Sequence record: OM386661.1
Direction: 5' to 3' (one strand)
Source of the DNA: Escherichia phage vB_EcoM_ESCO45
DNA: 64,000 nt
Positions 33,871-35,647 of the stretch are shown here, in pieces. Below the pieces are notes generated by a model. That model was not told the DNA's origin and searched no databases. It was given only the letters and a program-made list of their open reading frames with translations. How positions within the stretch are numbered: position 1 is the stretch's first letter; the number at the start of each line of letters is the position of its first letter. Position numbers and translations under genes: made by a program.

Positions 33871-34112
33871 GGCTACTGCCATCCTTCCATACCAAACCTC
33901 ACCTGACCTCGCCTAACCCTACCTTACCCCACCATACAGCACCTTATTAAAACACCCTGTTTAAAGACCTTTTAAAAAGGTAAGTCTCATTTTAATGTAG
34001 CTGAGACTAACTACCCATACCTCACCCTACCAGACCCTACCAGACCAGACCTTACCCTACCAGACCCTACCGAACATCACTTAAAAACCCTCTTAGAAGA
34101 CTCTTAAGTGAT
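33871..34112. repeat. composite repeat copy A (G-depleted CA-rich tracts + conserved hairpin + inverted repeat)
   Basis: GGCTACTGCCATCC start, CA-rich tract, CCTTATTAAAA..GACCTTTTAAAAAGG, hairpin TAAGTCTC-ATTTTAATGTAGCT-GAGACTAA, CTACCCATACC, second CA tract, IR ATCACTTAA...TTAAGTGAT; near-identical module order to 35386-35647. Confidence 0.7.
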
Positions 34113-34113
34113 G

Positions 34114-34235
34114 TAATCGAATTTTAATGTAGCTCCGATTAACTACCCATACCTCACCTCACCCAACCATACCATGCCTTGCCAGACCGCACCTTACCTC
34201 ATTAAAAGACCCTCTTAAAAGACCTTTTAAAAAGG
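34114..34235. repeat. partial/rearranged third repeat copy with covarying hairpin
   Basis: Hairpin TAATCGA-ATTTTAATGTAGCT-CCGATTA has the same loop as copies A and B but a different, still complementary stem; then CA tract and CCTCATTAAAAGACCCTCTTAAAAGACCTTTTAAAAAGG. Confidence 0.6.
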
Positions 34236-34251
34236 AGCCTCCGAAGAGGCT
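34220..34251 (-). terminator. candidate minus-strand terminator downstream of cassette
   Basis: AGCCTC-TTCG-GAGGCT hairpin followed on minus strand by CCTTTTT. Confidence 0.4.
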
Positions 34252-34262
34252 ACCTAGTCAAC

Positions 34263-34703
34263 TTAGAAAGGTTTTCTACGTTGCTTGTTAATGTTAGCTT
34301 TCATAGCAGCTAAATGGTTTTGCTGTTCAATCAGTCGTGAACGTTCTTGATGACTAAGCGCCATAGTGTTCACATTCTCAATTGCTTGAGTGGCTTGCTT
34401 TAAAGCTCGACCAATCTTACCAGACATTTTGCGTTTTGCAATAGTTGCTTGATGCTTAGGTTCAACCACACGATAACCAACACCCATTGAAGCAACCAGA
34501 TAAATCTTCTCTTCTTTAAGAAGCTTTTCAATAAACTTCTCAAGTCGGTTTAGACGTGTAAGTGCATAAGCCTTCATTTCATCTTCGTACTTAACAATGT
34601 CACCTTGATAAGTTGGCTTCACAATACCTAAGAAGGTGTCCATCTCGGAATGTGATACAGTGTCGCCGTAACTAAACTTTGCTGCTAATGCTTTTGTATT
34701 CAT
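34263..34703 (-). CDS. hypothetical protein (cassette gene 2 of 2), coiled-coil with basic tail
   Basis: 146 aa, no motif I can assign; C-terminal KQRRKPF. Confidence 0.45.
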   Translation of the reverse strand: MNTKALAAKFSYGDTVSHSEMDTFLGIVKPTYQGDIVKYEDEMKAYALTRLNRLEKFIEKLLKEEKIYLVASMGVGYRVVEPKHQATIAKRKMSGKIGRALKQATQAIENVNTMALSHQERSRLIEQQNHLAAMKANINKQRRKPF

Positions 34704-34705
34704 AA

Positions 34706-35308
34706 TTAAACGTTACCTTCTGAAATAACTTCTACAGAAAAACGACCAAAGCGTGGACGCCAATCACCTACACCACAAAGGTTACCAGCATTTTCCAGAA
34801 CCATCAGAAGTTCCTCTTTGGTGATTTGCTCTTCATCAAACATCAAACCGAACTCTACAGACCAGTCACGGAAGATTGGACGGTAGCTCATAACTCGTGC
34901 TGTGCCAATTTTAACAGATTTAGCATAGATAAAGTCTGGATTCTTAGCAAGTTCTTGTGGGTTTGCTGGACAGTTCTTGATAGTCATTGGGAAGACTACA
35001 TCTGTCAGCATAATGGCTCGGTCAATTACCTTACCAAGTTTGTTGAGTTTTGCACCAGACTTGATACAAGCCTCAATCATCTCACCGTTCATAACAAAAC
35101 CTAGCTGCTCATCATAGTAACAGGAAGTTACCAGTTGGCTTTCTGCTAAGAGCGCATAGTCTTCGTCAGTCTTTTTACGTTTACTGGACAGAGACTTGTG
35201 ATATTTTGTCAGAGGGTTTAATGGGTCTGACAACGTATCGTTATGGCTCAAGAAAGGACGAGTACCAGTGATTTTGATATTTAGCAGTTTCATAGCATTT
35301 AGCTCCAC
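34706..35308 (-). CDS. hypothetical protein (cassette gene 1 of 2)
   Basis: 200 aa, no recognisable catalytic motif; 2-nt spacing to downstream gene suggests co-translation. Confidence 0.45.
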
Positions 35309-35385
35309 ACTTTAGTTGATTGTTAAGTTGTTTGTAAAGAACCCTCAACAGAAGACTCTTTAGAAACTTGGTAGATTTTTAACGT

Positions 35386-35647
35386 GGCTACTACCATCCA
35401 CCCACACCGTGCCACACCACACCACACCACACCATACCCAACTCCACCTAACCCTACCACACCTTATTAAAAGACCCTCTTAAAGACCTTTTAAAAAGAT
35501 AAGTCTCATTTTAATGTAGCTGAGACTAACTACCCATACCGAACCTCACCGCACCATACTACACCTGACACCACCTTACACCACCGCACCATACCTGACC
35601 GAGCTACACATCACTTAAAAACCCTTTTCAAAGACTCTTAAGTGATG
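35386..35647. repeat. composite repeat copy B
   Basis: GGCTACTACCATCC start, CCACACCACACCACACCACACC tract, same modules and order as copy A. Confidence 0.7.

Follow-up and report, generated by a model that had tools for sequence, protein, structure and literature searches.

The window analysed here is a stretch of 64,000 nucleotides of the genome of Escherichia phage vB_EcoM_ESCO45 (OM386661.1), and all positions refer to it. It is 96-99% identical to genomes of Felixounavirus, the Felix O1-like coliphages. Two adjacent genes on the minus strand are flanked on both sides by repeated sequence. The first, vipr (34706-35293), encodes a protein of 195 amino acids when read from an ATG, within a longest open reading frame that starts at a GTG at 35308. 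Over its full length the product matches the 'SUSP1 Vipr protein' of PDB entry 36pp, chain D (E = 6e-128), with identity at 191 of 195 positions (98%). None of the four substitutions falls at a published contact residue, and H17, K33, E71, M72, R138, C173, D177, W178 and R179, which contact RNA or DNA, are all retained. To judge from its sequence, the vipr product would be a RAMP-like, RNA-binding protein that forms filaments. The second gene, vap (34263-34703, vipr-accessory protein 1, Vap1), lies directly downstream and encodes 146 amino acids, of which 145 (99%) are identical in the product of the SUSP1 gene at the same position downstream of vipr. Vap is assigned to phrog_5926, whose function is not annotated; the PHROGs for both proteins are families without an assigned function, no Pfam family was found for either, and a sequence search of the PDB gave no match for Vap. 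The original prediction, made by reading the letters alone, held both proteins to be unassignable. That view is overturned by the matches, which make them Vipr and Vap1.

A σ70-like promoter (TTGACA-16-TATACT, 35705-35678 on the minus strand) matching the consensus at 11 of 12 positions lies directly downstream of the stop codon of the ligase gene, where it had been predicted, and the same promoter sequence is found upstream of vrRNA1 in SUSP1. After vap there is an intrinsic terminator on the same strand (34236-34251, AGCCUC-UUCG-GAGGCU followed by a U run). The U run is continuous with the P1 element that follows, described below. The distal boundary of the locus is set by a second σ70-like promoter on the minus strand (TTGACA-17-TATTTT, 33807-33835) that serves the next gene, of 127 amino acids; it is conserved in relatives both with and without the two-gene cassette.

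The repeats had been described as two G-depleted composite copies plus a rearranged third. All of the modules listed are present: GGCTACTRCCATCC occurs at 33871 and 35386, a 14-nt loop ATTTTAATGTAGCT at 33989, 34121 and 35508, CTACCCATACC at 34011, 34143 and 35530, and an inverted repeat ATCACTTAA...TTAAGTGAT at 34074-34114 and 35608-35647. The repeats are thus real, but the count was wrong. There are five units, three downstream of the gene pair (33892-33980, 34025-34113 and 34147-34235) and two upstream (35412-35500 and 35559-35647). The larger composite modules are 120-147 bp in length, while the basic repeat is one of 5 nt with two variable bases. The depletion of G is also genuine, but the underlying code had been missed. 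Read on the minus (coding) strand, the 'CA tracts' are five strictly pentameric runs of 10-13 GGYNN units (13, 12, 10, 11 and 11). This is well beyond chance; a scan of the 64-kb window for CC recurring in a fixed phase of 5 nt (in at least 8 of 12 units) picks out these two intergenic regions only.

The proposed layout from 5′ to 3′ on the minus strand is promoter, vrRNAs U1 and U2, vipr, vap, terminator and vrRNAs D1 to D3. Each vrRNA would be about 90-100 nt in length, comprising 10-13 GGYNN units followed by a hairpin-pseudoknot tail of 34-36 nt. The promoter at 35678-35705 is likely to drive U1, U2, vipr and vap. A hairpin termed P2 (35609-35647, CAUCACUUAAGAG...AAGUGAUG), with approximately 18 bp including G.U pairs, lies 5′ of the first guide; it has a calculated stability of -15.5 kcal/mol as sense RNA, compared with -9.0 kcal/mol for the antisense, and we infer that it is an inter-guide or leader element. 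vrRNA U1 (35500-35600) has a guide of 13 units (35600-35536) and an H-type tail (35535-35500) that reads GGGUAG-UUAGUCUC-AGCUACAUUAAAAU-GAGACUUA. A P1 hairpin (35464-35499) separates it from U2 (35370-35463), in which a guide of 12 units (35463-35404) is followed by an S-type tail (35403-35370) identical to that of the experimentally characterised SUSP1 vrRNA1. On the far side of the genes, D1 (34113-34198) has 10 units (34198-34149) and an H′-type tail (34148-34113), with the loop of the H type on a different, covarying stem. This is followed by a P2 hairpin (34074-34112), then D2 (33981-34071) with 11 units (34071-34017) and an H-type tail (34016-33981), a P1 hairpin (33944-33980), and D3 (33855-33943) with 11 units (33943-33889) and an S-type tail (33888-33855, GGAAGGAUGGCAGUAGCCUUAUAAAAAAUCUGCC). 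All of these elements are on the minus strand.

The P1 and P2 hairpins correspond to the near-palindromic blocks of the original prediction, which are present, with the refinement that they depend upon G.U pairs and consequently fold well only as minus-strand RNA (-15.5 and -17.5 kcal/mol, compared with -9.0 and -8.6 kcal/mol for the antisense). Rich in G.U pairs and placed between guides, they are probably spacers or processing elements, and they might be dedicated processing signals that define the ends of the vrRNAs.

When the tracts of the window and its relatives are taken together (447 units in 40 unique tracts), the first position of the pentamer is G in 87.5%, the second is G in 98% and the third is a pyrimidine in 100% of units, and the N positions are hypervariable, with entropies of 1.94 and 1.91 bits. 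A compensatory change in the stem had been claimed, and indeed the two hairpin types differ by three base pairs, each with both partners changed. Both helices of the tails, stem and pseudoknot, covary (3 + 3 pairs with both partners changed); pairing is kept in 94-97% of cells, compared with 25-50% in slid controls, in a small sample of 9 and 4 distinct sequences. The repeats appear, as had been proposed, to be selected elements that lie downstream of the TTGACA/TATACT promoter and would be transcribed from the minus strand.

Given the near-identity of both proteins with those of SUSP1, the region transcribed from the minus strand is almost certainly a VIPR (Viral Interference Programmable Repeat) locus, of type II and belonging to the SUSP1 clade, in Felixounavirus. 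VIPR was first described in two preprints of 2026 that have not been peer-reviewed (bioRxiv 10.64898/2026.04.26.720920 and 10.64898/2026.04.26.720927), on the available text of which the following account is based. The clade is defined by more than 90% identity. Vipr is described as a minimal homologue of RAMP proteins that combines an RRM core with a G-loop and a thumb. In SUSP1 it polymerises on the GGY units with one protomer per repeat, sequestering GGY, while the NN dinucleotides pair with double-stranded target DNA, one target base being skipped per unit; the DNA-bound complex blocks transcription. The vrRNAs are about 100 nt long, co-purify with Vipr and direct repression that is programmable through NN, as judged by sRNA sequencing, pull-down, GFP and lambda assays. 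Processed vrRNAs were found bound to Vipr in infected cells, reprogramming the NN code of vrRNA1 moved repression to a new DNA target, and vap1 enhanced protection. Published vrRNAs have 9-16 tandem YNNGG (GGY/NN) repeats and lie in the intergenic regions flanking vipr, and all five tracts on the vipr strand in ESCO45 fall within this range.

Since the ESCO45 proteins and RNAs are nearly identical to those of SUSP1, they would be expected to work in the same way; for expression, processing, RNP formation and repression alike, this extrapolates from the SUSP1 preprints. The module order is that of SUSP1 with one extra upstream unit. One feature that counts against the VIPR reading is the placement of vrRNAs D1 to D3 behind the intrinsic terminator. 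We are highly confident that this kind of locus, i.e. phage-encoded, RNA-guided silencing of DNA, is already known, and that the window brings no new principle. The G-depleted blocks are five-guide-RNA arrays around VIPR genes, so that the finding is real and striking, and already explained.

The phage would presumably use the system to silence a parasitic satellite, and in silico matches indicate that the guides are aimed at a chromosomal element of E. coli of about 11 kb. This element was found in 474 of the 5,426 E. coli genomes searched and has tape-measure and baseplate genes related to those of the phage itself. It belongs to the family named in the preprint; the satellite locus L017 encodes WP_096972664 and WP_096972663, the proteins named there. 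The guide of U1 matches the satellite tape-measure gene at 23 of 26 NN positions, in frame and with 11 consecutive units perfect. That of D1 matches 18 of 20 at L019:8415 (minus strand), in an intergenic region upstream of a satellite gene, and that of D3 matches 20 of 22, in frame, in a satellite gene of hypothetical function (L016:7558 and L017:7292). These matches, at 88-91% of NN positions, are obtained under the 1-nt-skip rule only; other skip rules give at most 77%, and none of 200 shuffles of unit order reached the values observed for U1, D1 and D3. The absence of a perfect match among the 13 satellite variants sampled, for which 88-91% is the best, counts against the VIPR reading. The rule applies more widely. 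When the guides of 11 relatives are added to those of the window, giving 35 unique ones, 22 match a satellite at 80% or better with a skip of 1 nt, compared with one, three and one guides for skips of 0, 2 and 3 nt. No guide has a target within the window, where the best match is at most 75%.

For U2 no target was found in the satellites, nor in a scan of IMG/VR for exact matches under the 1-nt-skip rule, and for D2 there was none in the 13 satellites. The D2 guide has a low-complexity AG/CT code that appears to be internally duplicated, and in phage ULIM3 there is a 5-unit version. As U2 and D2 appear to be slipped or duplicated, these guides may be inert. The exact IMG/VR scan gave no hit for U1 and one for D3, in frame in a portal-like gene (contig L014), and the corresponding 1-nt-skip scan gave one for D2, at 21 of 22 positions (contig L028). 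The phage collection contains no match to either environmental contig, the E. coli collection contains none to L014, and no second guide matches either contig. With single-guide matches and a chance expectation, roughly estimated, of about 0.2 hits per scan, both are probably fortuitous. No target above background was found among the 13 satellites for the orphan tracts in ASO1A and DE17, two phages without vipr, or for the satellite's own guide, and a blastn search with the guide region for satellite-borne vrRNAs in the 5,426 E. coli genomes gave no match.

The cassette is accessory, with some 117 of approximately 256 records of related phages carrying it. The original prediction of an accessory two-gene conflict cassette thus holds, although not as anti-defence in the usual sense; it would be an RNA-guided silencer directed at a satellite. 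ASO1A and DE17 lack it and keep a single decayed tract. In relatives without the cassette the junction reads PromB-P2-tract-S tail-PromA, as expected from recombination between the outer units, and guides seem to be chimeric or slipped between phages. Both observations would be accommodated if the repeats were mere recombination substrates or incidental duplications through which the cassette is gained and lost, having no function as RNA. We nevertheless consider this very improbable. [quoted passage not shown]

It is possible, but on balance rather unlikely, that the P1 and P2 hairpins and the tails double as recombination handles, by which guides would be swapped, fused, duplicated or slipped between co-infecting phages and satellites, and excision of the whole locus would leave a hybrid 'orphan' guide in phages lacking vipr. 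Such an orphan guide could be loaded in trans by the Vipr of a co-infecting phage. Recombination-driven dynamics of the array are not described in the available text of the two VIPR preprints.

The dispensability of the locus bears also on whether the tracts could be an origin of replication, either as iteron-like arrays binding protein or as a zone of R-loop or G-quadruplex formation that primes DNA synthesis. The non-template strand is very G-rich and free of C directly 3′ of a strong promoter, and there are replication genes in the neighbourhood (ligase, polymerase, thymidylate synthase and DHFR). An iteron origin has several protein-binding repeats, nearly identical and about 17-22 bp long, together with an AT-rich unwinding element, and is essential for replication. 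The repeats here are of 5 nt with two free positions, and viable relatives do without the cassette and retain one tract of the five. Moreover, hypervariability at exactly two positions in five fits a guide code and not an iteron, the GC skew changes with the orientation of the genes and shows no inflection here of the kind expected at an origin, and the adjacent protein is one whose structure has been solved as an RNA-guide-binding protein. An origin is thus extremely improbable.

We regard as no more probable the proposal that the tracts regulate the downstream genes in cis, as a structured leader or as a sponge RNA that would titrate a host RNA-binding protein like CsrB or the TRAP-binding leader, and do not act in trans as guides. 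The upstream copy does lie physically between the promoter and vipr, and a triplet every 5 nt recalls the TRAP-binding leader. In the trp leader RNA of Bacillus an oligomer of TRAP reads a conserved triplet that recurs about 11 times with variable spacers of 2-3 nucleotides, and the likeness extends to the period of about 5 nt on otherwise unstructured RNA. The TRAP oligomer closes into a ring and regulates its own mRNA in cis, through attenuation. By contrast, three of the tracts in ESCO45 are downstream of the genes and behind the terminator, their NN positions match foreign DNA according to a specific skip rule, whereas the spacer bases of the TRAP leader carry no information, and the locus encodes a partner protein known to use RNA as a guide to DNA. 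TRAP and Vipr are unrelated in sequence. Of the original proposals, non-coding RNA was thus the correct one, while the leader in an untranslated region and the iteron or origin find no support. Likenesses to boxA/nut, the ops site of RfaH (GGCGGTAG), primase sites of the T7 type (GGGTC/TGGTC), plus-strand rut sites for Rho and a Chi-like GCTGGTGA served merely as leads, and were dropped after the match to Vipr.

The VIPR locus may be compared with better-known systems. A CRISPR array has identical direct repeats of about 21-48 bp and unique spacers of similar length, usually beside cas genes. The locus has 5-nt units and no repeat-spacer array, cas1, cas2 or other cas genes; no Pfam cas family was found on neighbouring genes, and Rfam (both strands, E ≤ 1) gave no CRISPR or other family here, the sole match being a weak, chance one outside the region. 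In T4-type phages, PeSL cassettes are repeated intergenic modules of promoter and stem-loop around accessory genes, which they help to gain and lose through recombination between related phages. PeSLs are short promoter-hairpin units without coding or guide content, whereas the ESCO45 repeats would be guide-RNA genes, and the loss of the cassette in relatives of ESCO45 seems to follow incidentally from the repeats. The Felix O1 genome paper lists other repeats, not these, and a scan of IMG/VR for the hairpin plus the CTACCCATACC motif gave no hits. According to the available preprint text, VIPR resembles Class 1 CRISPR-Cas, where a Cas7-family RAMP filament forms on crRNA, in its RAMP/RRM fold, G-loop and thumb, in having one protomer per periodic RNA unit with the thumb flipping bases at fixed intervals, and in arraying several variable guides, each capped by a conserved structured handle. 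By contrast with CRISPR, pairing in VIPR is non-contiguous, two paired bases in five guide nucleotides being read against three of target, and type II VIPR has no nuclease; it silences transcription, and is encoded by a phage and directed at a satellite.

The ESCO45 and SUSP1 loci share the promoter, the grammar of P1/P2, guide and tail modules, an identical vrRNA1-type tail, the genomic position between the genes for ligase and for the 127-aa protein, and the target satellite family. They differ in genus (Felixounavirus for ESCO45, Suspvirus for SUSP1) and in the number of upstream guides (two, compared with one), and all five NN codes of ESCO45 differ from the four of SUSP1.

VIPR is a newly reported and unusual form of RNA-guided DNA recognition, using a gapped code in which two of every five guide bases are read against two of every three target bases, and it has been proposed to be older than CRISPR. 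The locus was here picked out from the sequence unaided, and the published targeting rule and satellite target are reproduced with independent data. In the Felix O1-like phages, some of which serve in typing and biocontrol, VIPR is common yet dispensable, and guide repertoires vary between isolates.

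The locus at 33871-35647 is as described in the original prediction, with the named motifs found at the positions given for them in a motif scan of the whole window. A repeat search identified a five-member family of 89-nt units (33892-33980, 34025-34113, 34147-34235, 35412-35500 and 35559-35647), together with inverted repeats at 34074-34114 and 35608-35647. The minus strand is the coding strand for all the genes adjoining the locus, and on this strand there are tracts of GGYNN pentamers, those of 13 and 12 repeats lying upstream of the two genes and those of 10, 11 and 11 lying downstream. 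In a scan of the whole 64-kb window, CC in a fixed 5-nt phase was restricted to the two intergenic regions of the locus. The predicted sigma70-like promoter TTGACA-16-TATACT is present on the minus strand at 35705-35678, preceding the upstream pair of tracts. An intrinsic terminator (34251-34236, minus strand) follows the 146-aa gene, and a second such promoter (33835-33807, minus strand) closes the region. Each promoter is overlapped by its own inverted repeat, at 33808-33854 and about 35656-35696 (AAATAAGCTATAA/TTATAGCTTATTT and GGTGAGTA/TACTCACC); both are also present in phage SUSP1. These are candidate operators, at which the HTH regulator of 32873-33202 may act.

Neither protein has a family in Pfam, and PHROGs places both in families of unknown function only. 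The original prediction took both to be unassignable, but a sequence search of the PDB settled the matter, matching the 195-aa protein (ATG at 35293) over its full length to chain D of 36pp, the SUSP1 Vipr protein (E=6e-128). The two Vipr proteins are identical at 191/195 positions, and H17, K33, E71, M72, R138, C173, D177, W178 and R179 are all retained. The 146-aa protein is identical to SUSP1 Vap at 145/146 positions. By tblastn, 117 Ounavirinae records have a Vipr of >90% identity, among them wV8, HY02, Moogle and SUSP1/SUSP2, with distant homologues (23-44% identity) in Gordonia, Pseudomonas, Mycobacterium and Vibrio phages. We note that the structural preprint lists T175 among the Y3-pocket contacts, while residue 175 is valine in both 36pp and the window Vipr (codon at 34771-34769, minus strand); T175 is probably a numbering or typing slip.

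As described in two 2026 preprints (bioRxiv 10.64898/2026.04.26.720920 and.720927), a VIPR locus comprises vipr, encoding a minimal RAMP homologue, the accessory gene vap, and guide vrRNAs in which 9-16 YNNGG repeats precede a conserved 3′ tail containing a pseudoknot. Each repeat is bound by one Vipr protomer that sequesters GGY; pairing with the target DNA strand is through the NN dinucleotides, with one target base skipped per unit, and the complex represses transcription. For SUSP1 the preprints report the expression and size of the vrRNAs, the Vipr-vrRNA filament, gapped pairing with formation of a triplex R-loop, and enhancement by Vap1. The order of modules in SUSP1 is promoter, P2 hairpin, guide, S-type tail, vipr, vap, terminator, P1 hairpin, guide, H-type tail, P1, guide, H tail, P2, guide, S tail and promoter. 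This order is matched in the window, which has one additional upstream unit, P2-guide-H tail-P1, giving two guides upstream (U1 and U2) and three downstream (D1 to D3); one of its tails is near-identical to that of the characterized system. By the criterion stated in the preprint (>90% Vipr identity) the locus belongs to the SUSP1 VIPR clade, and so the finding is already known. A third element resembling the core of the P1/P2 hairpins, AAGAGTCTTCTGTTGAGGGTTCTTT, lies ahead of the vipr start, in the leader that follows the U2 tail (35309-35369, minus strand).

In 40 unique tracts taken from the window and relatives, 447 units in all, the repeats have G, G and Y at the first three positions in 87.5%, 98% and 100% of cases, with entropies of 1.94 and 1.91 bits at the two N positions. 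The tails fall into four variants of a single topology, in which a strand of 4-5 nt immediately 5′ to a hairpin is paired with the loop of that hairpin, and an A-rich run forms the end of the loop. In the H and H′ tails (nine distinct tails) 94% of cells pair in the named structure, and both partners differ in three of the stem pairs, bearing out the compensatory change noted in the original prediction. In the S tails (n=4) 97% of cells pair, and such two-sided changes affect two pairs of the pseudoknot and one of the stem; controls in which the partner was slid gave 25-50% pairing. This covariation supports the published pseudoknot, although with small samples and paralogous tails it is not independent proof. 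G.U pairs occur in the H′ stem and in the P1/P2 hairpins; on the plus strand the same positions would be mismatched as A.C, indicating that the selected structure lies on the vipr-sense RNA.

Since satellite tape-measure and baseplate proteins are named in the preprint, the window gene following the tape measure (20531-21328) was used as a blastn probe. Among 5,426 complete E. coli genomes, 474 have a chromosomal gene for a phage baseplate protein that is 68-95% identical to the probe, and window 20552-21116 (plus strand) has 90-95% DNA identity to this gene. The gene lies in an element of about 11 kb for which several insertion sites in the chromosome are seen (mdtG, a DUF72 gene, near tonB and near dinB). 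Besides the tape measure and the baseplate protein, the element has genes for serine recombinases, a Dam-like methyltransferase, an HTH protein and small hypothetical proteins. The copy in E. coli SCU-387 (L017) holds WP_096972664.1 and WP_096972663.1, exactly the accessions of the preprint; the element is the satellite targeted by the guides. This copy has a 10-unit GGYNN tract of its own (L017:3953-4002, minus strand), with an S-type tail that keeps the pseudoknot strands GTGG/CCAC on a different complementary stem, GTCG/CGAC. No vipr is annotated in the L017 element. The tract fits the remark in the preprint that satellites encode guides.

Thirteen satellite elements (159 kb) were scanned for targets. 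With a 1-nt skip, U1 matches 23/26 NN positions, with 11 consecutive units perfect, in frame in a satellite tape-measure gene (L015:12766, plus strand). D1 matches 18/20 at an intergenic site some 100 bp ahead of a satellite gene (L019:8415, minus strand), and for D3 the match is 20/22, within a 128-aa gene and in frame (L016:7558 and L017:7292, plus strand). With the other skips the best matches were 17/26, 15/20 and 17/22 respectively, and in 200 shuffles of unit order the observed values were never reached. In the phage's own tape-measure gene U1 matches only 18/26, at what appears to be the homologous site. No guide exceeded 75% of NN positions within the window under the 1-nt skip, which did no better there than other rules. 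Of the 35 unique guides obtained from the window together with 11 relatives, 22 have a match of at least 80% with a 1-nt skip, compared with 1, 3 and 1 for skips of 0, 2 and 3 nt; the published rule and target are thus reproduced on data gathered independently. Neither U2 nor D2 has a satellite target in the 13 elements. Exact 1-nt-skip matches of D3 (20/22, within a portal-like gene and in frame, L014:3849-3877, plus strand) and D2 (21/22, L028:8924-8955, minus strand) occur in IMG/VR environmental viral contigs that have no relative in the phage collection, nor for L014 in the E. coli collection, and are probably due to chance.

The window is from a Felixounavirus, with 33700-35800 having 96-99% identity to ULIM8, dune and ZX4221, and at least part of this region is matched by 256 phage records. 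The intergenic repeats are much more variable than their flanks (about 120 to about 450 bp, 60-99% identical). ASO1A and DE17 lack both vipr and vap, retaining only one tract and its flanking modules between the two promoters, so the cassette is accessory and dispensable. The junction is that expected from recombination between the outer units. The orphan tracts (ASO1A, L006:2404-2831; DE17, L007:2404-2684), in the order P2-tract-S tail, are more degenerate, with GG lost in 2-3 of nine units, and have no satellite match above background; each may be either a remnant in decay or a guide that can still be used in trans. U1 of SflM_004 is chimeric, its 5′ part coming from U1 of Sf17 and its 3′ part from that of the window. 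U2 (35404-35463) contains GGTGT four times, a ULIM3 guide has GGTAT six times, and D2 (34017-34071) alternates GGTAG and GGTCT. D2 of a relative has five units versus 11 here; across the window and loci L002, L009 and L012, some guides occur in long and short versions or as chimeras of those of two other phages. Such runs, length variants and chimeras suggest slippage and recombination inside the tracts. Elsewhere in the window, a 167-aa ORF (37717-38220, minus strand), situated among small genes that come just after the one for DNA polymerase, matches a gene annotated in relatives as an HNH/AP2-type homing endonuclease, and is likely a mobile insertion.

Might the repeats be passive substrates for recombination? 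Given the cassette loss and chimeric guides, recombination between units is probably real, but as a consequence of the repeats rather than their function. Variation confined to two positions in five, structures specific to one strand, natural loss in viable relatives and target matches specific to the skip rule all contradict a passive role. The same four observations contradict a leader acting in cis or a sponge RNA. They equally contradict the replication origin or iteron array that had been offered as an option.

On the VIPR reading, the five RNAs would be made and loaded in the same way as in SUSP1, with P1 and P2 acting as spacers or processing elements, and D1-D3 might be expressed by read-through of the terminator or from unrecognized promoters. 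Some minor details were not found in the text of the preprints: the second upstream guide, where SUSP1 has one, the dependence of the P1/P2 hairpins on G.U pairs, the decayed orphan guides of relatives lacking vipr, and the signs of slippage and chimerism. The biological role of the system in this phage would be the suppression of a parasitic satellite.
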